IMG/VR virus record: IMGVR_UViG_3300032138_000002
Coordinates: 64,001 to 128,000 of that record
Origin: a virus
Lineage: Duplodnaviria > Caudoviricetes
DNA length: 64,000 nucleotides
Strand: one strand, 5' to 3'
In this document: one piece after another, positions 14,152 to 64,000 of the stretch
Layout of the letters: every line of letters starts with the position of its first letter
Position numbering within the stretch: position 1 is the first letter of the stretch
The notes under the pieces: generated by a model
The model's database searches: none
What the model was told of the DNA's origin: nothing
Seen by the model: only the letters and a program-made list of their open reading frames with translations
Program-made: the position numbers and the translations under genes

Positions 14152-14159
14152 AATTTCTC

Positions 14160-43500: not shown

Positions 43501-46500
43501 CGGGGACCGTTTCCATTCTTTCTATTAGAACGAGAAATGATTCAAGTAACGCATCATTATTTTTAAGGGCCGGTGATTCGCTTAAATCACCTTTTTTGAA
43601 ATTAGATCTCGCTATCGTTTTAAAAAGTTGTTTGACTTCTTCAATTTTAAAAAAATCGTATTCCGATGATTGCAATTTTAACAACGTCGCCGGAAGATTG
43701 GACGGGCTAAATGTTGCTTCACCACCTTGCTCTCGACCAATCATTAGTCTACCCACTAGACTATTACACATTTCGTTCCAAAGGGTGGCCGGCCCAAGAG
43801 GATCATCCGAATAAGCATTTCCGGCAGAGGATACATCGCCGAGGAGTACATCCTGAGGAGCTAAGGATTGTTGGGAAACCACCTCGGCCAATTTCTGACC
43901 AGAAGCTTCAGTGCCCCATGCAGTGCTTTTGGGGGTCCATATAAGTGGGGGGGCAAAATTTAAGTTTTTTATTGTATTAACAGTGGATAACAAATAATCT
44001 CTAATTGTTCCAATCATTGTGTAGGCTTCTTCTACTGTTAATTCGAGAGGGGCGTCACTGAAACTTCCTAATAATGAATTTAGCTCTTGGATTGCCGATG
44101 ACAGTGTGTTTTGCACCATTGTTAATAGACCACTGGGAAGGTTATGTGCCTCTATCTGTGTCTCTACCATAATTAGCGTCCCGCGGGCGTGACTTAGATT
44201 ATCAAGCGATGCTTGAATAACCTCGGAAAAGTTTCCTTCTGCCTTGTAAGGAAGGGTTGGATCCCCAAAAACCACAGGGTGTATTTGTGCTTGGGACAAA
44301 CTTTGAAGAGGGCCTGGTGTCACTCCTGCGGGACCATGTTCAATTAGGTTCGCGGCAGGCTCTAAGAGTAGATTATCGTCTCCGGAAAATACATCGGCAG
44401 CGGCGCCGCCCTTTTTCCAGAAACCACTTATTTTGGTCGTTTCATAAGGAAGGGTAAATGTAAAAAGTTCGAAAAAAGTAGCAAAGTTAGACCCCAAATC
44501 TGCGGCAGGATCCTGTGTCCTTTTTATTAGTGCTGCCGCGATATCTGCCATCACATCGTCATAAAGATCTTCTTTTACTCCATCAAAATAATTATTGGCT
44601 ATTTTTTGACGGGCTGTTTTATGAACAGCCGAATCTACTAGTATATTCTTCAAGTCTTGTTCGGGATTAGCATCCGTATTATTCACGCCATTTATCATAT
44701 CCATTAGCGATTTCCCCACCTCTTTTTTTAACAATTGGTCGGCAGCTAACTGATCCGCAATATCGCCCGGGCTTAATCCTATGGCGGCTAATGTTCTCGT
44801 GTGTTCGGCATATTTGCCGTCCCCGTCGTTGCATATATCGTATCCGCTCAAGCTCTCAGTAATATTATATATTTCCTCTATTTGTTCACAGATAGATAAA
44901 TCAGCTAGATCACCTATACTTTTATAAAAATATATTAAAGATTTCCGAATAGTGAACTTTTGATTAATAATTTCATACCCATGATCTTCATTAAAATAAT
45001 ATACGCGATCGATGAGACTATTGGAGGGGGTGCCACCCAACAATCGGCAAATATCTAAAGGAGTTAACACCAAAAATAATTGTGTAATGTATTTTACAAA
45101 ATCAATATCGACGTCGAGGTGATCATCCATGTTGGGGGGAAACTTCAAAGCTTCGGGAGAAAGGGAACCGGCGGTGGGGAGGCGCCCTGTTCTAGAAGCC
45201 TGAGGCGGACATAAACTGTTCAGCCGTTCAATGAGTTCATTGATTCTCTGAATTACTAGTCTTTCTACCAATCCATCGATATAATTTTGCATCCGGTCTT
45301 GCATCGTTTGCAATCGTTGGGCCGGGCTCACCCCATCCACCCCTAGGGCTTTTTGTGCAAATCCCAACGCATCGTAAATATTGATATTAATATTGATTTT
45401 ACCGGGACAATGTTTTTTGGCAGGGAGTTCGTCATCTATCCTATTGTATAAGTTGGTGACGGCGGACGTCCCAGTCTGTGATAGCATTTCATACATTTCT
45501 TTAATATTGGCTACCAGTATGGCGGCGCCGCCTACAATAACCATACAAATTACTGTTTTAGTGTCTTTAGTAAGCGCATTGACGACGCCTTCAATGTCTC
45601 TAGGCTCTAAAAGTTCTACCTCTTTATCTTTAAGTGTCTTTTGTTTTGTAGAGTGAATCGGGGATGTTTTAGATACTATTTTAAAATCAGATACTAAACT
45701 TTTCCATGTTTTAGCGCCCACCACTCCATCTTTTTTTAGGGAGGACCCTCCTTGGTATGATTTAACCATTCGCTTAGTTTTTGGGCCAAAGATGCCGTCT
45801 ATTTTTAAAGGGCGCATTCCTTCAACCTCTATGGGCTTTATATCATTAGGGGAACCGGGGACGGGTTCGGTAATGTAGTCGGGACCAAATATCATTAAAT
45901 TAAGCAATGTTTGTAATAGTTCTACTAACTTACCTTCATTTCCGCTTCTTAGTGTTTTTAAATTTTCACTCTCGGGAAGGGTCATCTGGGGAGCTTCCTC
46001 GGCCGCTAAAGCATCTGCTGCCGCGGTGGCAACGTCGCCGACTGTCGTATCGAAGAACCCTTCGAGATCTCGATAGGCCTCTAATATTTCAGGGTCGTTG
46101 TTGACACCAGAAATAATACCATTAGTTGCGGCGCGCTTCATTTCTCCGAGAAGCTGCTGGTATATCGCCTCTCCGTCGAAAATGGTTTCGCCCGTTGCCG
46201 GGTTGACTTGATGAATGTTGCGTATTTGCTCTAAATAATAAACAGCTTTTTCCGGATCTCCGAAAATAGCCGTTAATGTTGTGTCACAAAACATGTCAAT
46301 AATATCTTCAATTGTAAAAGTGATATTCATACATGCCAGGGCGCGTTCGGCAAGCTCCCTGATGGTTACTTTAGACAATATTTTTCTTTGTGCTTCCAAC
46401 AGGGACGTAATTTTAGTCCCCTGATGTGACATATCGATCATAAAATTATCTCGGATATCAGTAACTTGAGTATCTAAAATTGTATTATGTTGACGACGAT

Positions 46501-48298
46501 TAGTACTATTGTTCAGTTGAACCTGCTCTCCGCGGACCTGTTCAGCGGTTTGGGGGACCGGGGGTTCCTCCTTAATTTCTTCAATGGCGTTTGCGATGGG
46601 GGCTATGTTAGCTTTTTTGCGGCGGCCGTCGAGATAACGATCGCCATCCGGATCGAAATACTTTAAAGTAGTATCAGATAACTGAATATATTTACGCACA
46701 AATTCAGATAAAGGCAATGGGCCCGAACTATCTATAGAACTTTCATCCGTGGAAACTTCTATTTTCTCAATAGAGACACAATCCCCATCACCTGAAGAAT
46801 CGAACTTAGCCAAATTTATAAGGAAATTCACCGCCCTTTCGTCGGAAAGGGATGAAAAAAAGAGGGGCCCTATCTGTCCGGTATTATTGTTAATCTTGTC
46901 TAGCGCAGAGGGAGAGTTATTTAAATTAAGGGGGGCGCTTTTATAATAACTTTTAATATATTTATCTATTTTAGCCTGTCCGAGTGTGTTACCTTCGGGA
47001 TCGACTTCGGCTCCTAAAATATCTGAGTCAAAATCATTTGGTGAATTAAGGTACTCGAACTTATCAATAACATTACGCGTGAACATGAGGCCATATGTGG
47101 CCACATTTGACTTAAATTCTTTCTCTAGCTCAACAAAAAGATCGCCGATCTTTTTCTTTTCGTTGGTCACTTTTGACCCCACCGCCACAGTCGTCTTGCC
47201 ATCGCTTACGGTGGCAGCTACCGGTGGCTCTGTCTCCACCGCCTCAACTTCTGTAAACGTTAATGGTGCGGATACCTTTATTTGACTATTCACTGTCCAT
47301 CTCGCCGAGATAAGATCGATAATTTCTTGGCCTGTTTTTTCAATATTTTTAAGTATTTTCGCCAATTTACGTGTTTTACGTACCACATACATTACTTTTA
47401 ATTCATTTCGGTTAATGAACATATAAAAAGGGCTATTCAGAGAAATTTTGTTCACCTTGAGATATTCCTGCACATCATTCTGTAATCGCTCTAGAGTGAA
47501 TATCTCCCCAGCCCACGTAACATCGCCGAAATTATCAAAATATACCCACTCATTATTTTGAGGCCTTTTGTCAAGATCTTGATAATATTCAAGTCTTTCT
47601 ATAAAACCACCCAACTGAGAGGTAAAATCAGTGTAATCATCAAAAGAAAGGATATAGAGGGGGTCAACGATATCTTTGAAAGTCTCGTGTTCTTCCTGTT
47701 CAGAAAACCGTTGATTGTCTATTTTTAATGCGAGTGCTCCCAAATTTAAAGTACTATCTTCCCATGGGCGCGGGGCACGAATGAGATTTTTAAATCGTTT
47801 GCCATCATAAGTAATTTTAATTCGTATAAAACCGGTAGCCACTTCCTCGGAGGTGAATTCTGTCTCACCACCCATCATCATATCAATTATTACCGGTTCC
47901 ACTACGGGTTCAGATTCTGTTATTTTGTTATCAACCCAATCGACTTCGGCAAAGGGGCCCTGGTCTAATGCAGCGCTTGCGGCGGTGGATCCTTGGGTTT
48001 CATAAAGTATCTGCGGGCCCAGTTCAAATATCCCGGAAATATCTTTACCGTATTTAAAAGCGATCATCATCAGGCCCAGCATTTTGTAATGATCGGCGCG
48101 CGGGGCATTGACTGTCGCGGGGGCGTTGGACATATAGGCGCCCTGATTTATCGTTATATTAGGTTTCTCAACATAGAGATAGTTCCCCACATCTTGTGTG
48201 GCCCCGGAGGGTAGTTTGAGACGAAAAATAATATTATAATCCCCATTTCCATCAATATAGGGTTCGTTAACGGGTATATTTGTCCAGTCTTCTGCCAT
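40568..48298 (-). CDS. 2576-aa virion protein containing a peptidoglycan-binding (PG_binding_1-like) domain
   Basis: TLRSGNEGKLVELLQTLL...IDGIFGPKT...YQ....LKKDGVVGAKTW at about 45690-45960; located between spike and gp25. Confidence 0.65.
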   Translation of the reverse strand: MAEDWTNIPVNEPYIDGNGDYNIIFRLKLPSGATQDVGNYLYVEKPNITINQGAYMSNAPATVNAPRADHYKMLGLMMIAFKYGKDISGIFELGPQILYETQGSTAASAALDQGPFAEVDWVDNKITESEPVVEPVIIDMMMGGETEFTSEEVATGFIRIKITYDGKRFKNLIRAPRPWEDSTLNLGALALKIDNQRFSEQEEHETFKDIVDPLYILSFDDYTDFTSQLGGFIERLEYYQDLDKRPQNNEWVYFDNFGDVTWAGEIFTLERLQNDVQEYLKVNKISLNSPFYMFINRNELKVMYVVRKTRKLAKILKNIEKTGQEIIDLISARWTVNSQIKVSAPLTFTEVEAVETEPPVAATVSDGKTTVAVGSKVTNEKKKIGDLFVELEKEFKSNVATYGLMFTRNVIDKFEYLNSPNDFDSDILGAEVDPEGNTLGQAKIDKYIKSYYKSAPLNLNNSPSALDKINNNTGQIGPLFFSSLSDERAVNFLINLAKFDSSGDGDCVSIEKIEVSTDESSIDSSGPLPLSEFVRKYIQLSDTTLKYFDPDGDRYLDGRRKKANIAPIANAIEEIKEEPPVPQTAEQVRGEQVQLNNSTNRRQHNTILDTQVTDIRDNFMIDMSHQGTKITSLLEAQRKILSKVTIRELAERALACMNITFTIEDIIDMFCDTTLTAIFGDPEKAVYYLEQIRNIHQVNPATGETIFDGEAIYQQLLGEMKRAATNGIISGVNNDPEILEAYRDLEGFFDTTVGDVATAAADALAAEEAPQMTLPESENLKTLRSGNEGKLVELLQTLLNLMIFGPDYITEPVPGSPNDIKPIEVEGMRPLKIDGIFGPKTKRMVKSYQGGSSLKKDGVVGAKTWKSLVSDFKIVSKTSPIHSTKQKTLKDKEVELLEPRDIEGVVNALTKDTKTVICMVIVGGAAILVANIKEMYEMLSQTGTSAVTNLYNRIDDELPAKKHCPGKINININIYDALGFAQKALGVDGVSPAQRLQTMQDRMQNYIDGLVERLVIQRINELIERLNSLCPPQASRTGRLPTAGSLSPEALKFPPNMDDHLDVDIDFVKYITQLFLVLTPLDICRLLGGTPSNSLIDRVYYFNEDHGYEIINQKFTIRKSLIYFYKSIGDLADLSICEQIEEIYNITESLSGYDICNDGDGKYAEHTRTLAAIGLSPGDIADQLAADQLLKKEVGKSLMDMINGVNNTDANPEQDLKNILVDSAVHKTARQKIANNYFDGVKEDLYDDVMADIAAALIKRTQDPAADLGSNFATFFELFTFTLPYETTKISGFWKKGGAAADVFSGDDNLLLEPAANLIEHGPAGVTPGPLQSLSQAQIHPVVFGDPTLPYKAEGNFSEVIQASLDNLSHARGTLIMVETQIEAHNLPSGLLTMVQNTLSSAIQELNSLLGSFSDAPLELTVEEAYTMIGTIRDYLLSTVNTIKNLNFAPPLIWTPKSTAWGTEASGQKLAEVVSQQSLAPQDVLLGDVSSAGNAYSDDPLGPATLWNEMCNSLVGRLMIGREQGGEATFSPSNLPATLLKLQSSEYDFFKIEEVKQLFKTIARSNFKKGDLSESPALKNNDALLESFLVLIERMETVPALFNLLGYLAAYPQASDLLNNPEVLAQLNTAANQNTEFTAEIYAHLQKIKLLRYNESLDVNNIKYNALAPMDDTITGLIASGDAPSCDPEASFGPNFPLDVSAQNNHYGFPVLNKNMWADTRLLGTDSVPQFSNPKYGATGASKPDAIIPADLDTLVWQTKAVLEATETPDDDLSLEEWKKEQIPVRGGFFFENFVQFDAINVKGASQAAASSLGNISIFDSWEEKRGEIKERFPYLQQHPDGDAIFESDSSSRPITFSTEETIDLLKIIGGDASYFENNYKKELMIPLGWYVAPDEDNSWEVTNGLPASGVWYSPVWDMVSTMVNSAKVFGYYSGRISNMPYGPSVKNFIGGPAGTLNSNDVDWILRTRLITPQLNPIEQNHIFETVPLRDARWTRSWTGLEDNEVDAERKPDTNAAARNPTSVGAGGRYLGCAVPWDTRNFYSAAKKKYFPWALATAPFLNKVGYGGSTPSSYKTSEITWYTGTAPETVTFPLSGQREDTYYTSREELNVWYGPQLDLTSKTTAQNTKEASAPGTNIGTWNYLPSGTTRKFSLPKNIKELKDLFLNLNEKTNKAVSEPIFTEQAYHLAKVFDQDTGTIVEREQTLRVPIQFGVASKGTELGNEGQVIKKAGLINGIQYKDSEDDDQYVTATTKTIRIIRVYKKISLRDPSSDGTSDTITVSNLLPNLKLGVRLNYLLRDSIVGLFGNDAAYWDTFSGTVEGEEEQTLTGIAATPDLLPIAFNSDPVAAIAASTPDEILFDRLWMPLRFIIASSTAGTEEPLIGLQNIGEHFPYQKIPLTLRIAEAAKSLASPELDVFNETAIDPATATLREFVKLLPHSVAGIPHLPGSGIDPRRSVIYGSGDYAGQVADTKSGGGAESPDPTGQYEIPSPFTHAPVYLYGNTIWKELACLLQEGTAWDTLFNEILPIKDIYSLYTTYLLHTLAMQSSDNAEYNNAIIPFLDQLKKEIIKLGEQT

Positions 48299-53283: not shown

Positions 53284-54249
53284 TCACCATTTAAAGTTTT
53301 GTTTATAATATTGGATTAACGTGGGCAATTCGTTATCGAAATCCTTTTGATTGTTCCAGCCGAGGGCTCTCAGTTTTTCATCGTTGAGCGCGTACCGAAC
53401 ATCTTGTCCTTCTCTAACATATGATAAATCCACATATTCTTCCCAATTATACTTGTTCTCGAAGAAAGTGTTAATGATTTTTTTTACGGTGTCGCGGTTG
53501 GCTTGTTGAAGATTGCCCGCCACATTATATATTTCATTTATCGAACCTTTTTCGATAATTGTCATGACTGCTTCGGCGGTGTCGTCAGCATGCAGCCAGT
53601 TTCTTACTGGTTCGCCTGCGTTATGAAGCCTTATCTTTTTGTTCCTTTGTAGTAGTTTTACTGCAACGGGAATCAACTTTTCTGGATATTGGCCAATTCC
53701 ATAATTGTTGGTGGGGCGGAGTATATTATACTGAAGTCCATATGTTCTTGCCCAGGCTAAGATAAGCATGTCTGCGGCGGCCTTTGAAGCAGCGTAAGGG
53801 TTGCTTGGGTTTAAGAGGGCGGTTTCGGTAAAGGCTCCGTGTTCAATGTCTCCATAGACTTCATCTGTGCTAAAATGAAAGAACACCGGTGGGTTGGCAA
53901 TATTGTTAGGCTTATTTCTTATTAAGTCTAGTAAATTGCGAACTCCATCCACGTTTGTGTGTAAAAAGTCAGTACTATCAATTATACTATTACCTACGTG
54001 AGATTCTGCAGCGATATTAATCACATAGTCACAATCAGGTAAAAATGATAGTTCGCAAATATCTTCGTTGATAAAAGTGAAGTTCTCTTCTGTCGGAGTA
54101 TTAAATTCGCGGAAATCATAAAGAAAATCCTCGTTGGCTGCATAGGTTAAAGAATCAACCCCATAAACCTTCCACCCTCTTTCAAGACACTTGCGGGTAA
54201 CATAGTGGCCAATAAGCCCTAAACAGCCTGTAATCGTCACTAACTTCAT
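53284..54249 (-). CDS. rmlB: dTDP-glucose 4,6-dehydratase-like NDP-sugar dehydratase
   Basis: TGCLGLIG, DSLTYA, AAESHV, STDEVYG, YAASK, NNYG..QYPEKLIP, RNWLH. Confidence 0.9.
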   Translation of the reverse strand: MKLVTITGCLGLIGHYVTRKCLERGWKVYGVDSLTYAANEDFLYDFREFNTPTEENFTFINEDICELSFLPDCDYVINIAAESHVGNSIIDSTDFLHTNVDGVRNLLDLIRNKPNNIANPPVFFHFSTDEVYGDIEHGAFTETALLNPSNPYAASKAAADMLILAWARTYGLQYNILRPTNNYGIGQYPEKLIPVAVKLLQRNKKIRLHNAGEPVRNWLHADDTAEAVMTIIEKGSINEIYNVAGNLQQANRDTVKKIINTFFENKYNWEEYVDLSYVREGQDVRYALNDEKLRALGWNNQKDFDNELPTLIQYYKQNFKW

Positions 54250-54689
54250 CTTATTAACTCTTCCTTATAGTAAGCGGCTCTGTCGCTGCATATGCCCGCA
54301 CAGTGCCTTAATTCCTCAGTTATTTCAGGAGGGGGTTTTACAGCTATCGAATTTTTAACCAAGGTTTGACCTGGGTATGTCCAAATATAACCCCTGTTAG
54401 TTAAAGCAAAATTATCAGTCTGATGCCAAAAACAATGGACGTCCAACCTCAGCAATCTTTCAAGGGCGTTTAAATTTTTGGCGTGACACCAGAAGTTTTT
54501 ATTAAAAAGGAAGTTGGTTGGGATATATTGATCAGAACCATCATGTCCCAAATAAAAGCTCCCCTCTTTCCACCACACATCTATTTCTACTTCAAACCCC
54601 TTATAAACTGCGTCTAAAATATAGTTGGGAGTATTTTCAAAAGCAGGCTGTGGGCCTATGATGTTGCCTCTATGGGCTATTATTTTCAT
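54246..54689 (-). CDS. GDPD/PI-PLC-like phosphodiesterase-fold protein; start re-called to 54689
   Basis: MKIIAHRGN, ENT, VEIDVW, LGHD, GICSD; ATGA overlap with the upstream gene. Confidence 0.75.
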   Translation of the reverse strand: MKIIAHRGNIIGPQPAFENTPNYILDAVYKGFEVEIDVWWKEGSFYLGHDGSDQYIPTNFLFNKNFWCHAKNLNALERLLRLDVHCFWHQTDNFALTNRGYIWTYPGQTLVKNSIAVKPPPEITEELRHCAGICSDRAAYYKEELIR

Positions 54690-55429
54690 CCAATATTCCT
54701 GAGAATAAAATTCTCCATCATTATAACACATTCTGGGAGGGGTTGTTTAGCTGTGTTTATGGTTAAATCTGGGGTTTGGGGTTCTTCAAAGGGGTCTGAA
54801 ATGCCAGTAAAATTATAGATCTTATCGGGGTGACCATCAGGTAGGAGCGCCTTAGCATATAACCCCTTTATATCTCTTTTCTTTACCGTCTCTAAATCGC
54901 ATTTTATGTATATTGTTTTAACGCTAGAATCTTTTTTCTGGTTTTCTATTCTTATCTCTTCATAGGGGTTGATAGCAGCGATGATTGATATTATGCTGTT
55001 TCTGGCTAATATTTTGCTCACAAAACTTAAACGCCTAATATTGTTGTTTCTGTCTTCTTTGGAAAAACCCAAGTCTTTGCACAGGTTTTCGCGATACTCG
55101 TCGCCGTCAATTACCTCTACCAAATAACCTTTTTTTCTCAGTCTCTGCGCTGTGTGCTGCGCTAGTGTGCTCTTGCCGGCACCAGATAAGCCCGTCATAT
55201 GAAGTGAAATGCCTTTGGTTCGACCCCAACGAATGACAGCCCAAAATCGTTCATGATAAATATAGGCAAACAAAGTGACAATTTGGTGGAGCACACTAAT
55301 GCTGACAGACGTGGCTGCTGAACTGGTAATAAAATATGAACAACATAATAGGCTCAAAAAGCCTAACAGTCTCCACGACAAAGATTTAACTATACTGCGT
55401 CGTCGGGTATCAATCATCCAGATATCCAT
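54686..55429 (-). CDS. cysC: DUF2061 membrane domain fused to adenylyl-sulfate (APS) kinase
   Basis: RSIVKSLSWR...YHERFW (DUF2061 pattern); TGLSGAGKSTLA, DGDEYR, LGFSKEDR, RDIKGLY, FTGISDPFEEP. Confidence 0.88.
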   Translation of the reverse strand: MDIWMIDTRRRSIVKSLSWRLLGFLSLLCCSYFITSSAATSVSISVLHQIVTLFAYIYHERFWAVIRWGRTKGISLHMTGLSGAGKSTLAQHTAQRLRKKGYLVEVIDGDEYRENLCKDLGFSKEDRNNNIRRLSFVSKILARNSIISIIAAINPYEEIRIENQKKDSSVKTIYIKCDLETVKKRDIKGLYAKALLPDGHPDKIYNFTGISDPFEEPQTPDLTINTAKQPLPECVIMMENFILRNIG

Positions 55430-56237
55430 AGTGACGGAGCCATGGGCCGCACTCTGTCTCTATAAAAGCTATTTGTTCGTCGGTCAAAGTTTCTTTGTAT
55501 CCCCCCACTTTGCCGTTATTTGATGTAATGTGTTCTTTTAACATTAACGTGGCCGAATATCGGGGGTCACTCCAATCACCAGAAGTCAACAAATTGTCCG
55601 TATCATCTTTAATGCCTTCCGCTTTCATGATAATCGACTTAAGTACCTCTTCTTTCATGGTATCGATCTCGGGAAAAAAGTTTCTCATCAAAGTTTTGAG
55701 TGTTTCAAGGGGGTCAACCTTATAATCCTCATAACACCATTCATAGCGTTTAACATATTTGTTTATATCAGGAATTGCTTCGTTATCGACATATTGCTGG
55801 ACCTTGGAAAAATCCTTTTGCTTTGATGCGGCATACCACATCAGGTGTTCTTTCACTATGTTTTCGAACTCCTCTTGTGATAATTCTACGTTTCCATGGT
55901 GTTCCCTTCTTTTACGCAACGCCGAGGCCGCAGTATCGCGGATATCACGACGTACGGTAATTAAAAAATCACACACGATATCTCCCGTATGTTCCTTTGC
56001 TATGAGTATATCCACGGGAGCAGGGGGTTCTTTTGTGTGATATTCACAATAATCCTGACTGAGGGCTACGGCGACGTTAAGTTGGCAGGTTTCGCAGAAA
56101 ATTCGCATAAGATTGAGAAGCAGAGTGCTTCCAGATTGCGGCATTCCCCCTATACACACAATCGGTGGCCGTTTTTTTTGCCATGTCTTTTTCCGCATTC
56201 GTGTCCAGATGTTATCGTCTTTCCAGGACAAGTCCAT
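55410..56237 (-). CDS. PAPS-dependent sulfotransferase-family protein
   Basis: 5'-PSB-like GMPQSGSTLL, 3'-PB-like RDIRDTAAS, YED, GKVGGYKETLTDEQIAFIE; next to APS kinase. Confidence 0.75.
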   Translation of the reverse strand: MDLSWKDDNIWTRMRKKTWQKKRPPIVCIGGMPQSGSTLLLNLMRIFCETCQLNVAVALSQDYCEYHTKEPPAPVDILIAKEHTGDIVCDFLITVRRDIRDTAASALRKRREHHGNVELSQEEFENIVKEHLMWYAASKQKDFSKVQQYVDNEAIPDINKYVKRYEWCYEDYKVDPLETLKTLMRNFFPEIDTMKEEVLKSIIMKAEGIKDDTDNLLTSGDWSDPRYSATLMLKEHITSNNGKVGGYKETLTDEQIAFIETECGPWLRHYGYLDD

Positions 56238-56950
56238 TATTGGTTCTCCAAAAAATATTTGAGGTCTTCAGGAGTACCTAGGCCCCACATTTTGTTAACA
56301 TAAAATGGAATTAAAGTTTTTCCGTCTTCTAGCATTTCGTTATAAACCGGGGCAATATAATATTCCCCATTTACTCTCACGTTTTTTTCTATCATTTGGT
56401 GAGCATATTTAACGAACTCTGAGCCTCGTCGATACCAATATATACCACATGTGGCGATATTGGAAATAGGCCTTTTCTCAGCCACCTCTGTAACAAAACC
56501 GCGAGAATTTGTCTTTACAAAGGACCATTTTGGGTGTACGGCATTGAACGTGAAGACCATCGAATCTACATCAGTTAAGTTCTTCAAAGTTTTAAAATTC
56601 TCGGCCTCGTACTCAATAAATTGATCAGAATTGGCGATTAATAAGTCCTCGTCGTCGTTAATAAGATCTTGAGCTAATAGGGCAGTGCAAGCCGCTCCTT
56701 CAGTTAACTCTTTTACCTCCACATGAGAACAGCGGCCATTTGTTATACGTTCCAGAGTATCTAAGAGACCGGCATACTTTTTTACGTGATCGTGCCTTAC
56801 TAAAAATATATATTCACAATCAAAATCTAGATTTTCTACCACCGTTTGGATCATGGGTCTTCCACGAACATCAATCAATGGTTTGGGAAAAGTATATCCC
56901 TCTTTGGTGAATCTACTGCCTTCACCCGCCATGGGTATTAAAACTTTCAT
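56237..56950 (-). CDS. Sugar-phosphate nucleotidyltransferase
   Basis: LIPMAGEGSRF...PKPLI, TEGAACT, ANSDQ, VAEK, LGTPED. Confidence 0.88.
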   Translation of the reverse strand: MKVLIPMAGEGSRFTKEGYTFPKPLIDVRGRPMIQTVVENLDFDCEYIFLVRHDHVKKYAGLLDTLERITNGRCSHVEVKELTEGAACTALLAQDLINDDEDLLIANSDQFIEYEAENFKTLKNLTDVDSMVFTFNAVHPKWSFVKTNSRGFVTEVAEKRPISNIATCGIYWYRRGSEFVKYAHQMIEKNVRVNGEYYIAPVYNEMLEDGKTLIPFYVNKMWGLGTPEDLKYFLENQ

Positions 56951-57566
56951 CTATAAATCTTTTAACCCCCTTTTTAATTACTTCGGTGGCATTGGTGACT
57001 TTCATTACACTACACCCGGATGCACGTGCAGCTTTTTCCCCTTTGGGGGAATCTTCTATTATCATAGCATTTTTAGGGACACAATTAAAGTGTTTTAATA
57101 CCTGAATATAACCTTCGGGGTCTGGTTTTGCATTAATCACATCTTCATTAGTTAAAAAGTACTCAAGATGCTCTAAAATACCAGCTTCAGTCAATACAAG
57201 TGAGGCCGTTTCTCGAATACTATTAGTAAAACACGCAATTCGGGCGTTATTGGATTTAAGCCATTGTATTAATTCAACTTTTTCCGGTCTTTCTTCGGAT
57301 TGTGCTCTGATTATCTCTAGAGTGCGCTCTTGCTTAAAATCAAATATGTCTTGAACATTATCTTTTTCAATTTTATTGGCCTCCACCAGCATTTTTAATT
57401 TTATCTTAGTGGGGAGGCCGTTGTATATTTTATAATGTTCCTCTAGGGGAATCTCATAGTTACAAACATGTTTTAATGCAGCATTGAATGCTTCTAAATG
57501 CCATCCGCAAGCATCTACCAACACCCCGTCCATATCAAAAATAACTAGTTCTGGAAACCTAGACAT
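56922..57566 (-). CDS. HAD-family phosphatase (beta-PGM-like); start re-called to 57566
   Basis: FDMDGVLVD, FTNS, KPDPEGY, IEDS; GAGGT RBS. Confidence 0.88.
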   Translation of the reverse strand: MSRFPELVIFDMDGVLVDACGWHLEAFNAALKHVCNYEIPLEEHYKIYNGLPTKIKLKMLVEANKIEKDNVQDIFDFKQERTLEIIRAQSEERPEKVELIQWLKSNNARIACFTNSIRETASLVLTEAGILEHLEYFLTNEDVINAKPDPEGYIQVLKHFNCVPKNAMIIEDSPKGEKAARASGCSVMKVTNATEVIKKGVKRFIDESFNTHGG

Positions 57567-58281
57567 TTGTACCTCTAGCCGCTGGGTCAATATTGTATTC
57601 ATCCAGGAGACTTTTAAGTTTTTTAGGATAACACTGAAAATCCCATTTACCTTTTACGACCGCGGTGGCAAAATAAGGATAAACATGACTATCCCAGTGA
57701 AAGTCTCCTCGCATTTGTTCGCCTTCCATAAAAGTCATCGCGCACTTAAATGCATGTTTTGCACAAACAATATTACTGTTGGCTTCGAATTTCCATATAT
57801 TCTCACCGGGAGTTTCCTCATAGATACGCATTAAATTTTCTTTTTTACACAATGTGGGTTGAATTGCGAATTGTAAATCCGGAGGGCAATAAAAAACATT
57901 CTCGTGAAGCATGGTGGGAGTTAAGGTTTCATATGGTCTGTACGTTGCCCGTACAAATTTAATAAAATCAAGTTGTTGTTCTTTTATCAAGCTACAACAT
58001 TTCTCTATTATTTGATTATTCGGCTCCCCATATAAAAACATATCCTCATGGTGAAATACAATTATGTCTTCTTCGACTTGCTGAATACCTTGCAAAACGC
58101 GTTGTTGATAGGGCAGTGCATCGTCATACCGCAACAAAACCCAGTCGGAATTTAAATCCGGCGTGCTTTGGTCAGCAATTAGATATTTCTTTACTTCCGG
58201 CAAAAACTTGTCCATTTGAGCGAACATGGGTTTCCAGATATCTGAATAATCTGAATGGGAATAGAAAACGGCGGCGTACAC
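57559..58281 (-). CDS. Putative glycosyltransferase-like protein; GTG start re-called to 58281
   Basis: Sugar-cluster context; HHEDMFL acidic motif, QPTL.KK, WKFE, AVVKGKW; AGGA RBS before the GTG. Confidence 0.45.
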   Translation of the reverse strand: MYAAVFYSHSDYSDIWKPMFAQMDKFLPEVKKYLIADQSTPDLNSDWVLLRYDDALPYQQRVLQGIQQVEEDIIVFHHEDMFLYGEPNNQIIEKCCSLIKEQQLDFIKFVRATYRPYETLTPTMLHENVFYCPPDLQFAIQPTLCKKENLMRIYEETPGENIWKFEANSNIVCAKHAFKCAMTFMEGEQMRGDFHWDSHVYPYFATAVVKGKWDFQCYPKKLKSLLDEYNIDPAARGTNV

Positions 58282-58289
58282 TAGTATTC

Positions 58290-59090
58290 CTACAACAATG
58301 CCATGAAGTCTGCGTGGGCGGTGGCGCCACACTCATCCATTTGTTTAAAGAAATCAACGGATAAGCTTCGATTCACATCGTCGATAAAAGGCGAGAACTT
58401 ATCATGAGTTAATTCCTTTTTTTCGAACGTTAAAAGATGATCTATCTTTGTTTCTAGCACTTTGTCCCACACGCGTGTTCCGATTGTTGGGATTGTTCCC
58501 AGTTCACACACATCCCGTAGACCTTTCACCGTACGCATTGAGCCGGCAATAATTTCTGCGCAGTCTGATTTACGCTTTTGAGCAAAAGCTACGTGTGCGG
58601 CAGCGTCCACTCCCTGCTCTTCCATCCGGCCGGGAATCAAACTAACATAACGGACATTATAAGTGAAACATGATAAGGCAGTTGAACAGTCGGCGACGCC
58701 GGTGACGTTTGTTTCCATAAAATTATTCAATTGGTCTACAACCTCAAGCACTCCGTGAAATGGGGGTATTTTTAGGCCTAGGCGTGTGGTGCCGTCTGTA
58801 AACTGACATATATACTCGGCCCATTTAACAATGTCATGAGGACACATCTCCGAATTTGGCGCTTGTACATATACGACGCCTTTGTTGTCGCCTCGTATTT
58901 TGGTTACAAGCGCACATAACTTCGGGAGATGTTCCGTCCATTGTTCTAGGCGATCCATATTTACCTTTTTAAATGCATTTGGATTTGTGGTGATCCCGCG
59001 CACGTGAGTACTATCGACGGTATTTTTAAGGCGCCCCCAGACATTTTCGATATATTCTATATCGGCAGTATCAAAAAAGAAATCAAACAT
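58290..59090 (-). CDS. Divergent transaldolase / fructose-6-phosphate aldolase family enzyme
   Basis: FFDTAD, GITTNP, Schiff-base LKIP, NVT, YVS...GR, IAGSMR. Confidence 0.8.
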   Translation of the reverse strand: MFDFFFDTADIEYIENVWGRLKNTVDSTHVRGITTNPNAFKKVNMDRLEQWTEHLPKLCALVTKIRGDNKGVVYVQAPNSEMCPHDIVKWAEYICQFTDGTTRLGLKIPPFHGVLEVVDQLNNFMETNVTGVADCSTALSCFTYNVRYVSLIPGRMEEQGVDAAAHVAFAQKRKSDCAEIIAGSMRTVKGLRDVCELGTIPTIGTRVWDKVLETKIDHLLTFEKKELTHDKFSPFIDDVNRSLSVDFFKQMDECGATAHADFMALL

Positions 59091-59448
59091 TTTTTTCCTC
59101 CTCGGCTTTTAATAATGTTTTTTTAACAGTGTCCCAATCAGTGAATTTTATTCCCTTATCATCTATAAAATAATCTACATGGGGTTTTCCAAACAATAAC
59201 TCATCATAAGGGATGCAGTATTTGTCTAGCCAATCTAAAACAAGCTTCCCTTGATTTGCAATAATTCTTCCCACGTTGTTTTCACAAGTTCTCATGTTTC
59301 GAGCAGTAAAAATGACAATATAATATCCACGTTGTTTTAAAAATTCTAATGTTTCTACAGCGTTAGGCAAAGGTTTTACATCACGGTAACTCTGGTCTGC
59401 GGCTTTGGTCTCGCATATTGTCCCGTCTAAATCAACGCATATCTTCAT
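59083..59448 (-). CDS. Small HAD phosphatase (capsule biosynthesis phosphatase type)
   Basis: VDLDGTI, FTAR, YDELLFGKP, YFIDDK. Confidence 0.88.
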   Translation of the reverse strand: MKICVDLDGTICETKAADQSYRDVKPLPNAVETLEFLKQRGYYIVIFTARNMRTCENNVGRIIANQGKLVLDWLDKYCIPYDELLFGKPHVDYFIDDKGIKFTDWDTVKKTLLKAEEEKNV

Positions 59449-60403
59449 AATCTAACGCCTCGTTTAAAAGTTTGATACCAGTAGTATACATCACCGTTTG
59501 CCGGGGCAAGCTATCATAATGTCGCGAGCACATACCAATGTATATCAATCCTTGAATTAACTTAGCTCTATTATCTCTGAATCTGTCGAATTTATTAAAC
59601 ACTTTTTTAATTTTTTCTTTATTATCATTTGCAAAGGTAACCTGAAAGTGGTTTAAGTCTTTATTCTCTTCTAACTCAAATTCATCAAAAATAATATATT
59701 CATATCCCCCTTCGAAAGAATGAACAAGTTTAGCTATATCATAGAGTGGATCACCAAACACACCGTCCTCACCAAAATGCCCGCGAGGGTCTACGAATTT
59801 TAACAAATGGGTCTGAGTTTTTGCATTTACCCCACAAAGAATATTCGAAAAACAAAAATCTCCATGAATAACCGAAAGTTGACGCAAAGGCGTTAAATAA
59901 TGTCGAATAAGTTCCTGTAGCTGATTCCATAAACAGTGGAAGTTCGCATAGGAGCGTCCGTCGATAATAAGTTTTTGATGGGTGGCTATGACTGCAAATT
60001 TAGGGTTTTCTAGTAATTCTTTATAATAACGTTCCGTTTTGCCAATGTACATTGCTTCTGCGTACGCTGTGAAATCGTCGTTTTTATGGGTTGTTACAAA
60101 AGAATCTAAAGCGTCGTTAATACCCGATGCAACATTTTCCCAAAAGGCTTGATCGAAATCCTCGTATACCATATAATCACCCAGATTATTATAAGCGTAG
60201 TACTCTAATTCCATCGAATGCTCCCCATCTTCATGTGAAGATTTGCGAAATCTAGGGAAAAAGATAGAGTGCGGTGTCGTCTCTATATCTTTATAATAAT
60301 TTATTTCATCAAAGAGGCGTGTTTCGCGGCTTCGTTTCGTTATGGTTCCTAACGATGAGTCAATCGAAAACGAATTATAGGCTCTCGTTATATGCTGCTT
60401 CAT
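59432..60403 (-). CDS. Aminoglycoside-phosphotransferase-fold sugar kinase (capsular polysaccharide type); start re-called to 60403
   Basis: IHGDFCFSNIL, DPRG.FG, GDPLYDIAKL.HS; GAGGA RBS. Confidence 0.8.
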   Translation of the reverse strand: MKQHITRAYNSFSIDSSLGTITKRSRETRLFDEINYYKDIETTPHSIFFPRFRKSSHEDGEHSMELEYYAYNNLGDYMVYEDFDQAFWENVASGINDALDSFVTTHKNDDFTAYAEAMYIGKTERYYKELLENPKFAVIATHQKLIIDGRSYANFHCLWNQLQELIRHYLTPLRQLSVIHGDFCFSNILCGVNAKTQTHLLKFVDPRGHFGEDGVFGDPLYDIAKLVHSFEGGYEYIIFDEFELEENKDLNHFQVTFANDNKEKIKKVFNKFDRFRDNRAKLIQGLIYIGMCSRHYDSLPRQTVMYTTGIKLLNEALDYEDMR

Positions 60404-61775
60404 AGACTTCCTCGATGGACAAGATCGATAAGCCATTATTCACCGCAAATTTGTTAAGATCGCCGCCTTTTGTCATCGTCCCATCGTCATTCATAATTTC
60501 ACAAATAATAGCAGCCGGTTTAAGACCCGCTAGTTTCATTAATTCTACAGAGCCTTCCGTGTGCCCTCTGCGCTCCTTCAGGAGGCCGTCACGTGCCCTC
60601 AGGGGGAACAGGTGGCCTGGGCGTGTAAGGTCGTCAGGCTTTGACGTGGGGTCCAGCAATACTTGAAGAGTAACCAGCCGATCGTACACTGACATGCCCG
60701 TAGTTGTGCCGTGCTTTGGGGCACCATCAACCGATACGGTAAACGGAGTTTCGTTAGCATCCGTATTATTCTCAACCATGGGTGGAATTTCCAAACGCTT
60801 AAGATCGGCGTCCGTCATGGGCACACACATCAACCCCTTCGCTTTATTCATGGTAAAAACAAGGTTTTCGACGGATGCGCGTTCGGCAGCGATCACAATA
60901 TCCCCCTCATTTTCGCGATCATATTCATCCACCAAAATAATTGGTTTCCCTTGTCTAAGTTCTTCGAGGGCGTTTTGCATTTTTCTGCTTTTAATCATTT
61001 CATTTTCCTTTGTAGCTGATTTGGCAATAAAAATGTCTACTTTGCTAGACATTTTTTTAATTTCTAACCATGTTTCAAATTCGGCGAGGCTTTCTGGAGT
61101 GTCCATCGATCTCATTTCTAGAATATTGTAATCGAAGATATTCTTACCGGCTGCAATTGCTTCATTAAAAACTGGTGAAATATAAAATTCGTTATTAACA
61201 CGAATATTTTTGGTGATCATGGAATTGGCAAATTCTATAAAATCGGATCCGTGGCGCCAATAAAAGGCGCCCGCCAAGGCTGTTGTAGAAATAACTTCCT
61301 TTTCAGCTACTCGATTTACGCGGCCACCATCACCAACCTCGGCATAACTCCATGATTTATTTCCGCTCTTATCATTAAAAGTAAAAATCATTCCGTCGAT
61401 GTCTGGATTGTTGATTGTTGTAGTAAATGTTTCCGTTTCCCAGAGGAAATAGTTATCACAATTGACAATCATTAGCTCTTCGTCGTTGTCGATATGGCGC
61501 GCCGCTAACAATGCTGTACAAGCTTGGCCGTCGGTTATACCATCTGCTACCACAAGTCGGCAATCGGGGACAATTTGTTTCAGTGTTTGATCGATATGAT
61601 ATTTATCGATATGTTCTTTCTGTACAATAAAAATATATTGCCCCTCTATGTTTAAACTCTCCACAACGCGTTGTATCATTGGTTCGCCGGCGATGTCGAT
61701 TAGGGGCTTAGGTAAACTATACCCCACTTCTTTAAAACGCTTTCCGGCGCCTGCCATTGGTATTAATATATTCAC
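60375..61775 (-). CDS. ribB: Nucleotidyltransferase fused to 3,4-dihydroxy-2-butanone-4-phosphate synthase (RibB); GTG start re-called to 61775
   Basis: N-terminal LIPMAGAGKRF...PKPLI; C-terminal RENEGD, GLMCVP, FTVSVD, TTGMS..DR, RPGHLFPL, RRGHTEGS, ICEI. Confidence 0.9.
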   Translation of the reverse strand: MNILIPMAGAGKRFKEVGYSLPKPLIDIAGEPMIQRVVESLNIEGQYIFIVQKEHIDKYHIDQTLKQIVPDCRLVVADGITDGQACTALLAARHIDNDEELMIVNCDNYFLWETETFTTTINNPDIDGMIFTFNDKSGNKSWSYAEVGDGGRVNRVAEKEVISTTALAGAFYWRHGSDFIEFANSMITKNIRVNNEFYISPVFNEAIAAGKNIFDYNILEMRSMDTPESLAEFETWLEIKKMSSKVDIFIAKSATKENEMIKSRKMQNALEELRQGKPIILVDEYDRENEGDIVIAAERASVENLVFTMNKAKGLMCVPMTDADLKRLEIPPMVENNTDANETPFTVSVDGAPKHGTTTGMSVYDRLVTLQVLLDPTSKPDDLTRPGHLFPLRARDGLLKERRGHTEGSVELMKLAGLKPAAIICEIMNDDGTMTKGGDLNKFAVNNGLSILSIEEVYEAAYNESL

Positions 61776-61777
61776 TT

Positions 61778-62659
61778 TTATTCCCACTCCGTTTGAAGGG
61801 CTATAGCACTGTCCCATAACTCATTTTTTATTAGAAACCATTTCATCAGCAAAATACCATTGACAGCCAAATAATAAGGATACTTATGTAAATTTTTACT
61901 GCGTTCCTCCGGAGGTTTTGTTTTTTCGTTGCTCCGAAAATCATTCATTTTAGATTCGGGCCAGCCTGATGTCACTGTCTCCCTATATTCACTTCTCAAT
62001 TGCAAATAGTCTAACAACACTTTTTCATAAAGGCTGCAAAAAATATCCATGTTTTTGGAATTAGAATAGAACCACATATCCGCGGGCCCTTCATTGAAAA
62101 GATCCCAATCAGCTTGATATAAATAATTCATATCCAACGTCGGGTCAAAGTTGATACATTGACACGGAAAAGGATTTTGTTTTCCTGGGCCGCTCGTGGC
62201 GCGATTGATGCGACCTAAGTCGAAGCGTGCCTTAATAACACAGTCATATTTAAACCCTTGTTCTTTTTCATATTCTCGCTTAAGAACAAGCGACTGAGAA
62301 AGAGAATAATATTGACTTAACAACCTCTCTGGGCCCACGTACCCAGTACCAGAAGTCGACGTCATTGTCCAATTTCCCAAAAAATTATAGGGATCGATAT
62401 CTTCTCGACTTACCTCGTGTTCTTGAGCAATGGGTACAAAGTCAATTTGGGGCTCTATAATGTGTTTTCTAGGCTTATATAAATCAACTAGTTTCTCCTC
62501 TAGATGGGGCTCCCAATTGTGAAAGAACACATCAATTTCGCAATCCTCCGAGCCATGGCTAAGAATATGTTTCTTAATATATTCAAACCCATCCATGCCC
62601 CGGGAGGAACTATCTTTCAGGGAATCGAAATAACCCGATAAACAGAGAGCGATTTTCAT
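61778..62659 (-). CDS. Putative glycosyltransferase-like protein (MKIALCLSG type)
   Basis: KIALCLSG, DVFFHNW, SQYYS, YDCVIKARFD, ADMWFY; sugar-cluster context. Confidence 0.5.
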   Translation of the reverse strand: MKIALCLSGYFDSLKDSSSRGMDGFEYIKKHILSHGSEDCEIDVFFHNWEPHLEEKLVDLYKPRKHIIEPQIDFVPIAQEHEVSREDIDPYNFLGNWTMTSTSGTGYVGPERLLSQYYSLSQSLVLKREYEKEQGFKYDCVIKARFDLGRINRATSGPGKQNPFPCQCINFDPTLDMNYLYQADWDLFNEGPADMWFYSNSKNMDIFCSLYEKVLLDYLQLRSEYRETVTSGWPESKMNDFRSNEKTKPPEERSKNLHKYPYYLAVNGILLMKWFLIKNELWDSAIALQTEWE

Positions 62660-62725: not shown

Positions 62726-63736
62726 TTAAGTTTCATCTCGATCTATAGTGGTATCGGCGGGGGGTTTGACGGCCCGCACATAATAGGCAGGTCGGGTAGT
62801 AAATAAATCCGTTCCCATAGTTACGGTAATATCTTTAAAGCCGGCAATATAAAAATCTCTCAACAAATAGCGTGGATCTTCCACTCGGCAATTCATAGGA
62901 GCCTGTCCGTATTCTTTTTGCTGGCGCAAGCCCCATGTGCCCGTATAGCCGTTGCTTATTTCCATATCTATAAAATGGTGGGACACGATCCCCCCTGGCT
63001 TTAACACACGAAAGCTTTCTTCGATCAAAGACATCCGATTATAATAATCGGGAATGTGAATAAAGACTGCGGAAGACATGACAAAATCGTATTCTTCGGA
63101 CAGTGCCGGTTTTAAGTCCCAGCCACTGGTTTCAAAGCTTTGTGATTTGCCGGCGCCATGGATATCTTCGGCATATTTTTTACTATATATAATATTTTGT
63201 TCAGAGATGTCGCAGCCATCCACTCTTTCAAACTCAGCTATATCGAGCAAATTTTTAAGATTACGTCCGCAGCCACAGCCAACATCTAAAGCTTTTTTTC
63301 CCTTCCAACTGGGCGCATCAGAATATACATCCCCCAATAACACCGTCCAATATTCTCTATCCTCATCCCGTTCCTTGTGATTTCCGACTGTCATTCCAGT
63401 GTGCTCGGCCTCAAAAAAACCTTTTTGGTAGGCGGTGTAGGTTTCTATATTGGGGGCGCCGGTTGTTTCTATCCAATCGAGGGCGAAGTATTCACCCACC
63501 GTTACCCCCTCGTCGACCAAATCTTGGCGGAAGACATCTAAACTGCTTTGATAAGAAGCACCAAACACCTCGCTGAATATCCATATAACGCCGGGGCGGA
63601 GGGATAATCTCTGGGAGCGCATTTCCATGCGGATGTCTTTGTAATTTGTATATATTGTAGTATCCGGCTTCCCAAAGTTTTTTTCATCATTGCAATAGAT
63701 TTCATAACCCTTCATTACGTCTGGAAGATGGTTCAT
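62726..63736 (-). CDS. Class I SAM-dependent methyltransferase with an unknown N-terminal extension
   Basis: ALDVGCGCGRN, GCDIS, YDFVMS...FIH, RVLKPGG. Confidence 0.85.
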   Translation of the reverse strand: MNHLPDVMKGYEIYCNDEKNFGKPDTTIYTNYKDIRMEMRSQRLSLRPGVIWIFSEVFGASYQSSLDVFRQDLVDEGVTVGEYFALDWIETTGAPNIETYTAYQKGFFEAEHTGMTVGNHKERDEDREYWTVLLGDVYSDAPSWKGKKALDVGCGCGRNLKNLLDIAEFERVDGCDISEQNIIYSKKYAEDIHGAGKSQSFETSGWDLKPALSEEYDFVMSSAVFIHIPDYYNRMSLIEESFRVLKPGGIVSHHFIDMEISNGYTGTWGLRQQKEYGQAPMNCRVEDPRYLLRDFYIAGFKDITVTMGTDLFTTRPAYYVRAVKPPADTTIDRDET

Positions 63737-64000
63737 TATCTCACCTTTTTCCTGGTTAAAAACAAGTCGAACTCTCTTAAATCTCGATAGGGTGGATCCT
63801 CGGGAAGATCGTCCACAGTTTCAGGATAATTTTGCATTAACATAAGGCCTCGGGCTGCTTGTTCCGGAGTCATATACATATTCCAGCCTTCTTCTTCAAT
63901 CATATCCTCATGATAGGGGACTTCTGATCTTCCTTCATATCTGGCTTTGCGAAAATATTCTACGGCTTTTATGTCGTCAGTCAAGATCATTCCTCCTTTG
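63736..64000 (-). CDS. DegT/DnrJ/EryC1/StrS aminotransferase, C-terminal part (truncated by the window edge)
   Basis: KGGMILTDD...RYEGR...GWNMYMTPEQAARG; frame is open to the window end. Confidence 0.75.
   Translation of the reverse strand, partial: KGGMILTDDIKAVEYFRKARYEGRSEVPYHEDMIEEEGWNMYMTPEQAARGLMLMQNYPETVDDLPEDPPYRDLREFDLFLTRKKVR

Follow-up and report, generated by a model that had tools for sequence, protein, structure and literature searches.

The 64,000-nucleotide stretch of DNA analyzed here (hereafter the window), which covers positions 64,001 to 128,000 of the virus record IMGVR_UViG_3300032138_000002 (IMG/VR; Duplodnaviria, Caudoviricetes), carries a gene (60375..61775, minus strand) whose 466-amino acid (aa) product joins a sugar-1-phosphate nucleotidyltransferase (NTase) to RibB, the 3,4-dihydroxy-2-butanone 4-phosphate (DHBP) synthase of riboflavin synthesis. 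We propose that this fusion is probably bifunctional and acts in a phage pathway for sugar nucleotides, along which ribulose 5-phosphate (Ru5P) would be turned into DHBP, DHBP into an aldolase product, and this product into a nucleoside diphosphate (NDP)-sugar. A first-pass annotation of the window had suggested that RibB serves here in the making of an NDP-activated glycan unit and not of riboflavin. Every comparative test that we ran supports such a repurposing, because the gene belongs to an invariant cassette, RibB takes part in independent fusions (with the NTase, and with NTase and kinase), the RibBs of the cassette form a separate clade, a bacterium with the cassette carries it as a second copy beside its own ribBA, and no riboflavin synthesis partners are found.

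A NTase-RibB Fusion With an Intact RibB Domain

The virus record of which the window forms part (hereafter the phage genome) is 159,483 bp long, is estimated to be 90% complete, and encodes a portal, a large terminase, tail-fibre genes and several giant structural open reading frames (ORFs), all on the minus strand. The open frame of the fusion gene is a single 480-aa ORF (60375-61817, minus strand) that extends to an ATG at 61817 and has no internal stop. The GTG at 61775, which sits 3 nt past the TAA of the upstream gene, is the likely start, since a GGAG ribosome-binding site precedes it and the resulting 466 aa match the modal length of the homologues. Both Pfam domains lie in one frame, namely NTP_transferase (PF00483, residues 22-199 of the 480-aa ORF, E 3e-8) and DHBP_synthase (PF00926, residues 282-473, E 2e-72, 243 bits), which agrees with the first-pass description of a RibB domain fused in frame behind a sugar NTase. 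The protein can thus be divided into a sugar-1-phosphate NTase domain (61068..61775, minus strand; ORF residues 15-250; PF00483/PF12804), a linker of about 28 residues (60984..61067, minus strand) that has no family match and is variable across the alignment of fusions, and the RibB domain (60399..60983, minus strand; ORF residues 279-473; PF00926, TIGR00506). An assembly artefact, which the first-pass annotation had named as a way in which its idea could fail, is ruled out: the isolate Synechococcus phage S-SKS1 has the same NTase-RibB fusion (40% identity, 97% coverage), and the architecture recurs in about 60 marine metagenomic protein clusters, whose members are 445-475 aa long and carry both Pfam domains.

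The RibB domain is canonical. It scores 218.4 bits against TIGR00506 (the NCBIfam equivalog cut-off being 177.45), its PF00926 match spans positions 2-190 of the 191 of the profile, and it aligns over its entire length with the solved RibB structures of V. cholerae and E. coli, with an identity of about 50% to the former. In a residue-by-residue alignment to V. cholerae RibB, the motifs RENEGD, PGH.FPLRA, RGHTE and CE..N.DG are all kept, in line with the earlier remark that the RibB motifs are intact. The catalytic columns are invariant in 13 fusions and common to 33 housekeeping RibBs, and the residues known to bind Ru5P and metals are unchanged in the RibBs of the cassette. As the catalytic residues are intact, the domain is presumably a true DHBP synthase, and it would perform the first step of the proposed pathway, the conversion of Ru5P to L-3,4-dihydroxy-2-butanone 4-phosphate and formate. 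Phylogenetically, the cassette RibBs, whether viral and fused, viral and unfused, or from the Planctomycetota copy described below, constitute one clade (Shimodaira-Hasegawa-like approximate likelihood-ratio test, SH-aLRT, 100) apart from the 33 housekeeping RibBs, with a long stem (0.81). The sole consistent difference between the two groups is a change from GGV to GLL beside the RGHTE motif.

The similarity to the RibB and RibBA proteins of riboflavin synthesis thus concerns fold, motifs and scores, and presumably also the reaction. Unlike RibBA, the cassette RibB is fused to a NTase and not to GTP cyclohydrolase II, has no rib genes beside it and falls in a clade of its own. The first-pass annotation had noted that ribA, ribD, ribE and ribH are missing from the window, and this absence extends further, since no match to RibA, RibH, RibE or RibD_C (PF00925, PF00885, PF00677, PF01872) was obtained in the whole 159,483-bp record. 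It had also reasoned that homologues consistently sitting with full rib pathways would speak against a repurposing; in 74 cassette loci (1.0 Mb), no GTP cyclohydrolase II or RibA-like gene was found. A role as an auxiliary gene for riboflavin is therefore rejected as the main explanation, given the fusions, the co-occurrence of the cassette genes, the bacterial ribBA and this lack of rib genes.

The Fusion Belongs to an Invariant Gene Cassette

The genes pointed out by the first-pass annotation next to the fusion are all present: a kinase (59432-60403), a phosphatase (59083-59448) and an aldolase-family gene (58290-59090). The same set lies downstream of the fusion gene in all inspected loci, as an APH-like kinase of ~320 aa, a HAD protein of ~120 aa and a transaldolase-family protein (TAL) of ~270 aa. 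RibB, kinase, NTase, HAD and TAL occur together in 22/22 loci retrieved with the fusion protein. When the aldolase was the only query, RibB and the kinase were found just upstream in all 49 viral loci with enough sequence upstream of the aldolase to judge (50 loci in total), and likewise in 45/45 metagenome loci with at least 2.8 kb upstream of it (80 in total), RibB being fused to the NTase in 24 of these. The cassette loci considered here number more than 130, and one metagenome scan alone yielded 233 relatives of the aldolase.

Four arrangements were observed. The first is that of the window (NTase-RibB, kinase, HAD, TAL); in the second, NTase and RibB are adjacent separate genes, followed by kinase, HAD and TAL; the third runs RibB, kinase, NTase, HAD, TAL, and the fourth RibB, kinase, a NTase-HAD fusion, TAL. 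In unfused cassettes it is thus the kinase, not the NTase, that directly follows RibB, and several cassettes hold one NTase only, serving all five functions. A metagenome-assembled genome (MAG) of Planctomycetota encodes an 817-aa RibB-NTase-kinase protein, then NTase, HAD and TAL, and has an ordinary ribBA elsewhere; the triple fusion was seen in just one further protein cluster. Upstream of it (locus L030, 1044-5494) lie a split transketolase, a methyltransferase, a Zn-dependent dehydrogenase, a RmlD-like reductase and a second APH-like kinase, so that the Planctomycetota version comes with extra carbon-skeleton enzymes. Three other Planctomycetota genomes also have a second RibB, but with no cassette genes nearby, and these copies were discarded as candidates.

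Two loci deserve a separate mention. At L160, an IS605 OrfB/TnpB-type (Cas12f-like) gene (1-1086) lies directly upstream of HAD and TAL, in the usual place of RibB and kinase, and the cassette may have been interrupted there by a transposon. At L208, a few genes downstream of the RibB cassette, a RuBisCO large-subunit-like protein of 396 aa (13048-14238) is encoded, and GIY-YIG homing endonucleases lie on the same contig; RuBisCO-type proteins are another family acting on ribulose-phosphate-type substrates.

A Divergent Aldolase Linked to RibB

The cassette aldolase (58290..59090, minus strand) is a divergent class I aldolase of the transaldolase/FSA type (PF00923, E 1.5e-9), whose profile matches the small transaldolases 1vpx, 3r8r and 3s0c, and it is the only TAL-family gene of the phage genome. 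Eleven sequences share invariant D7, T34/T35/N36, K107, N128/T130, R155 and S184/R186, which align with those same three structures. Like the FSA and TalC-type transaldolases, it is a TIM-barrel class I enzyme with an Asp, Thr/Asn, the Schiff-base Lys (Lys107), binders of the C1 hydroxyl (N128/S150) and binders of the phosphate (R155/S184/R186). The proton relay, in contrast, is altered: Gln76 occupies the position of the transaldolase Glu, as in FSA, while Ile152 replaces the transaldolase Phe or FSA Tyr, so that neither the standard Glu nor the Gln plus Tyr relay is found, and Tyr74 and Asp134 are invariant additions. The protein is also far from the canonical cyanophage TalC (E 8e-5, other catalytic set) and, unlike FSA and TalC, has RibB alongside it wherever the locus reaches far enough upstream of the aldolase gene. 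On the basis of these alignments, the cassette aldolase is a separate subfamily of the transaldolase/FSA enzymes.

Since the C1-hydroxyl and phosphate binders are kept and the proton relay is changed, the residues argue for a dihydroxyacetone-type donor, a phosphorylated acceptor and a modified handling of the acceptor carbonyl. From a structural point of view, replacing the aldehyde hydrogen of glyceraldehyde 3-phosphate by a methyl group gives DHBP, and the phosphate is equally far from the carbonyl in both; being the methyl-ketone analogue of that aldehyde, DHBP is a plausible acceptor.

Kinase and Phosphatase Point to a Known Activation Module

The kinase gene (59432..60403, minus strand) starts with an ATG at 60403, inside the 3' end of the fusion gene, and encodes an APH/protein-kinase-like small-molecule kinase of the family of the AfhE C-terminal domain, with invariant HGDxCFSN and IDPRG motifs. 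A sequence search of solved structures returned chance-level kinase matches only, and the informative matches came from the fold search: the model (predicted local distance difference test, pLDDT, 88) resembles APH, methylthioribose kinase, maltose kinase and NahK, and also choline and ethanolamine kinases. Methylthioribose kinase, maltose kinase and NahK phosphorylate anomeric hydroxyls. The family can be aligned with gp52 of phage RB69 (hhalign probability 98.5%, E 2.4e-15, 264 columns) and gives a tblastn match to phage HY126 (E 1e-8). By structure, its neighbours in the ESM Atlas are NTase-kinase fusions from polysaccharide loci of bacteria, and in Bacteroidota and Gammaproteobacteria such fusions are followed by a small HAD and a second NTase, without RibB or TAL.

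The phosphatase gene (59083..59448, minus strand) encodes a small cap-less HAD protein of the AfhF / EcbF-BcbF family (TIGR01689, E 2e-24) with 30% identity to RB69 gp51 over 118 residues (E 6e-12) and matches in 342 phage records. It is labelled "phosphoheptose isomerase" in S-SKS1 (locus L001, 11383-11739), in RB69 (locus L209, 3980-4366) and in many other phage records. This label appears to be a propagated misannotation, as the family (TIGR01689, HAD-IIIA) is one of phosphatases.

In phage HY126, AfhE (NTase and kinase) is reported to act on arabinofuranose 5-phosphate (Araf5P) as a kinase and, as UDP-Araf pyrophosphorylase, to produce UDP-D-arabinofuranose, while AfhF (HAD) removes the 5-phosphate from Araf1,5P2 and an isomerase supplies the substrate from Ru5P, the route thus leading from a sugar 5-phosphate through the 1,5-bisphosphate and the 1-phosphate to the NDP-sugar (PMC13326640). 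The corresponding genes of RB69 are ordered arabinose-5-phosphate isomerase (gp55), NTase-kinase (gp53:52) and HAD (gp51). The cassette resembles this module in its start from Ru5P, in the homologous APH-fold kinase, in the homologous small HAD and in the NTase that completes the route. It differs from it in having RibB and a transaldolase-type aldolase where RB69 and HY126 have the isomerase; in its NTase, which belongs to another clade and is fused to RibB, whereas the Afh NTase is fused N-terminally to the kinase; and in its surroundings in the window, which point to glycan tailoring and not to DNA modification, with no ThyA-like synthase. Neither the phage genome nor the 156 cassette loci contain a SIS isomerase, with the exception of locus L203 discussed below; a weak 13-bit match to SIS, located inside the HAD2 gene of the phage genome, was rejected as spurious.

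The first-pass annotation knew of no described pathway of this kind, and this holds for one half of the route. No description of the recruitment of RibB, of its lineage, of the fusions or of the RibB-linked aldolase subfamily was found in the searched literature, while the activation half is not without precedent, being homologous to AfhE/AfhF (PMC13326640). The activation logic is known, the four former elements are new as far as the searched literature shows, and there is a real chance that the sugar is new as well.

The same homology could be read in another way, with the kinase, the phosphatase and the NTase producing NDP-arabinofuranose from host arabinose 5-phosphate, and RibB and the aldolase merely travelling along as auxiliary genes for flavin and pentose-phosphate metabolism. 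Transaldolase is indeed a common auxiliary gene of cyanophages, the cassette gene of S-SKS1 is listed as "tal", and some phages use flavin-dependent enzymes (PMC13326640). Such a loose association is hard to reconcile with the physical fusion of RibB to the NTase in phages and to NTase-kinase in the bacterium, with a co-occurrence of 100% over 94 evaluable loci, or with a bacterium that has its own ribBA and yet keeps the cassette copy. The loci lack any RibA-like gene over 1.0 Mb, and the aldolase is remote from TalC in both score and catalytic residues. We consider this alternative very unlikely.

The NTase Domain Resembles Sugar-1-Phosphate Nucleotidyltransferases

The 13 fusions share 43-75% identity and keep the NTase signature, that is the N-terminal G-x-G-x-R (G23, G25, R27) with a Lys (K37), the base-contacting Gln (Q98), the Mg-binding Asp (D121) and the E-K pair of the sugar-phosphate site (E172-K173). 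The closest solved relatives of the domain are 4evw and the heptose-1-P guanylyltransferase HddC (5xhw), HddC being the NTase of the GDP-heptose route (GmhA/HddA/GmhB/HddC). It does not pass as an IspD/TarI-type enzyme, with 19.5 bits against PF01128 (cut-off 27) and 16 against TIGR00453 (cut-off 181).

These scores bear on one of the two options offered by the first-pass annotation, namely that DHBP is activated directly. The NTase would then act on DHBP itself, as IspD, TarI or LicC act on their substrates, and give an NDP-(3-hydroxy-2-oxobutyl) donor from which a phospho-C4 substituent is transferred, while kinase, phosphatase and aldolase would serve another sugar. A NTase activating a small phosphate ester derived from Ru5P would parallel the synthesis of CDP-ribitol by TarI/TarJ, and fusions such as that of RibB and NTase often mark consecutive steps. 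The domain gives weak IspD and NTP_transf_3 matches, and APH-fold kinases with LicC-like NTases commonly activate small alcohols, in keeping with the choline and ethanolamine kinases among the fold matches. The IspD and CTP_transf_3 scores are nevertheless under their cut-offs, and the top solved relatives, HddC included, are sugar-1-phosphate NTases. Unlike the TarI/TarJ and IspD systems, the core cassette has no reductase and possesses an additional kinase, phosphatase and aldolase, which direct activation would leave unexplained despite an invariance equal to that of RibB. In several cassettes one NTase has to suffice for all five functions, and an unfused RibB precedes the kinase and not the NTase. 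Activation of DHBP itself thus seems unlikely to us. The other option of the first-pass annotation, that DHBP is handed over to the aldolase, fits the data better: it gives a role to aldolase, kinase and phosphatase, which are present just as constantly as RibB and would be left without one.

A Proposed Route From Ribulose 5-Phosphate to an NDP-Sugar

Following the formation of DHBP by the RibB domain, the aldolase would condense it with a dihydroxyacetone unit, a step that we regard as the weakest of the scheme, to yield a seven-carbon keto-sugar phosphate, either C-methyl-branched, as a keto-hexose 6-phosphate, or unusual in some other way. This could close to a furanose resembling the arabinofuranose 5-phosphate handled by AfhE. 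By homology and gene order, the AfhE-like kinase would then phosphorylate the anomeric hydroxyl, the AfhF-like HAD would take off the distal phosphate, and the RibB-fused NTase would make the NDP-sugar. Glycosyltransferases of the surrounding ~19-kb cluster would finally use it on a glycan of the virion or the cell surface, or, less likely, on phage DNA; we infer both the NDP-sugar product and its target, glycan or DNA. The passage through a bisphosphate would be analogous to the routes to phage UDP-arabinofuranose, to GDP-heptose and to the lincomycin octose. The last of these involves the transaldolase LmbR, the isomerase LmbN, the kinase LmbP, the phosphatase LmbK and the guanylyltransferase LmbO (PMC4351081) and proves that nature uses a scheme of this type: a transaldolase builds the skeleton at the level of the sugar phosphate before kinase, HAD phosphatase and NTase act, as would also happen in the cassette. 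Unlike the lincomycin octose and GDP-heptose routes, the cassette has an APH and not a GHMP kinase, lacks a SIS isomerase and includes RibB, which has no counterpart there.

The RB69/HY126 module and the lincomycin scheme have an isomerase where the cassette has RibB, which could be imagined to have abandoned Ru5P and to rearrange or isomerize the ketose phosphate made by the aldolase, replacing GmhA, LmbN or arabinose-5-P isomerase. The long stem of the cassette clade and the shared GLL would be compatible with such a shift, and so would locus L203, where a SIS isomerase accompanies an aldolase of the cassette subfamily. The residues for Ru5P and metals are however unchanged, the equivalog cut-off is passed at about 50% identity to V. 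cholerae RibB, and the change to GLL enlarges side chains, so that no room is gained for a longer sugar. L203 is just 4.2 kb long and its RibB could lie off the contig, and locus L206 has a GHMP kinase alongside the RibB cassette. A change of substrate of this kind therefore appears improbable, and we retain a RibB acting on Ru5P as the entry of the pathway.

Several points weigh against the proposed route as a whole. Ketones are unusual acceptors for aldol addition by enzymes of the transaldolase family, and that DHBP would enter the aldolase active site is a proposal from structural reasoning. As no isomerase is present, the ketose would need direct anomeric activation, and activation at the anomeric centre of a ketose has, to our knowledge, little precedent. 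The RibB-fused NTase and the NTase embedded in unfused cassettes belong to different clades of the NTase tree, a few loci have no NTase or no HAD inside 7 kb, and the outgroup of the RibB tree is drawn from a single phylum. Finally, on L203 an aldolase of this subfamily is encoded together with a SIS isomerase and a GHMP kinase, and RibB is missing from the contig, so that the aldolase reaction may not depend on DHBP. We did not retain L203 as a RibB-free variant, the case being ambiguous given the short contig: its close relatives lie on shorter contigs still, and its closest relatives on long contigs, L207 and L208, carry RibB.

DHBP is known to us only as a riboflavin precursor, and Ru5P accumulates in infected cyanobacteria. 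If the route is correct, central metabolism would gain a branch point through a RibB lineage dedicated to nucleotide-sugar synthesis, probably towards a new sugar. More tentatively, and with somewhat more doubt than confidence, we suggest that in marine phages and, rarely, in bacteria RibB may be the entry to a new class of nucleotide sugars, in which a ketone-accepting aldolase gives rise to a C-methyl-branched keto-sugar that is activated at its anomeric centre and displayed on virions, host envelopes or phage DNA. DHBP would then have a new fate, the transaldolase family would include a natural enzyme that accepts ketones, and the ocean virome would contain a sugar not known before. Since many marine viral contigs carry the cassette, its product could be a widespread determinant of phage-host recognition, of the evasion of immunity or defence, or of DNA protection. 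The AfhE/AfhF activation module would thereby appear to be reused with different front-end enzymes, all drawing on Ru5P. S-SKS1 is a cultured carrier of the cassette, which makes the hypothesis directly testable.

Neighbouring Genes and the Destination of the Sugar

The cassette lies in a co-oriented cluster of about 19 kb. Directly upstream is a DUF7796-like gene (61778..62659, minus strand), whose homologues adjoin the cassette in about two thirds of the loci (PF25072 in 7/10 members); its model is of low confidence (pLDDT 62) with weak matches to the GT-A glycosyltransferase fold (E > 0.03), and a GT-A-like transferase is a possible role that we note as a lead only. Downstream follows a second activation module (56237..58332, minus strand), made of an uncharacterised 257-aa protein, a HAD of the beta-phosphoglucomutase family (56922-57602) and a second NTase (56237-56950). 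This trio also follows the cassette in the closest relatives, and its HAD and NTase are fused as HAD-NTase in cyanomyoviruses (S-CAM9 gp067, about 50 protein clusters), usually without a RibB cassette.

Tailoring genes, all on the minus strand, flank these modules. On the downstream side are an NDP-sugar epimerase/dehydratase (53284-54249), an adenosine 5'-phosphosulfate (APS) kinase with an N-terminal DUF2061 segment (54686-55429) and a sulfotransferase-like protein (55410-56237). The APS kinase beside the sulfotransferase-like gene suggests that the phage makes 3'-phosphoadenosine 5'-phosphosulfate (PAPS) and a sulfated glycan. A sulfotransferase also lies directly upstream of the NTase-kinase module in a Cyclobacteriaceae locus (L042). 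The upstream side (62726..64000) holds a class I methyltransferase (62726-63736) as well as the beginning of a DegT-like ORF, which runs past the end of the window. The latter (DegT/DnrJ/EryC1 type; 63736-64000 in the window, 12737-13357 in locus L003) is 206 aa long and covers the first third of the profile only, and may be truncated or split. Beyond the window, L003 (genome positions 115000-134999) encodes a FkbM methyltransferase, a GNAT protein, a UDP-GlcNAc 2-epimerase and three glycosyltransferases, and the cluster also includes an SDR. Because the cassette is surrounded by co-oriented tailoring genes and glycosyltransferases, the sugar looks destined for a glycan of the virion or of a cell-surface molecule, phage DNA, whose glycosylation the homologous Afh module serves, being a less likely target. 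A ThyA-like 5-hydroxycytosine synthase (PF00303) gave no match in the phage genome, at its estimated completeness of 90%.

A cyanobacterial host was considered for this phage and is not established, as the phage genome has no psbA and the link to S-SKS1 rests on the cassette. Three very long minus-strand ORFs are found in the structural region, at 19067-23419 (1450 aa), 27034-36699 (3221 aa) and 40568-48298 (2576 aa), and their neighbours are ORFs without a PHROG match. They are possibly giant fibre or decoration proteins and, as such, candidate glycan acceptors. Elsewhere in the genome (136569-137249, equivalent to 1570-2250 of locus L004), a 226-aa ORF whose match to the ATLF metalloprotease-type domain stays below threshold (24 bits, cut-off 27) probably encodes a small zinc-protease-like protein unrelated to the RibB cassette.

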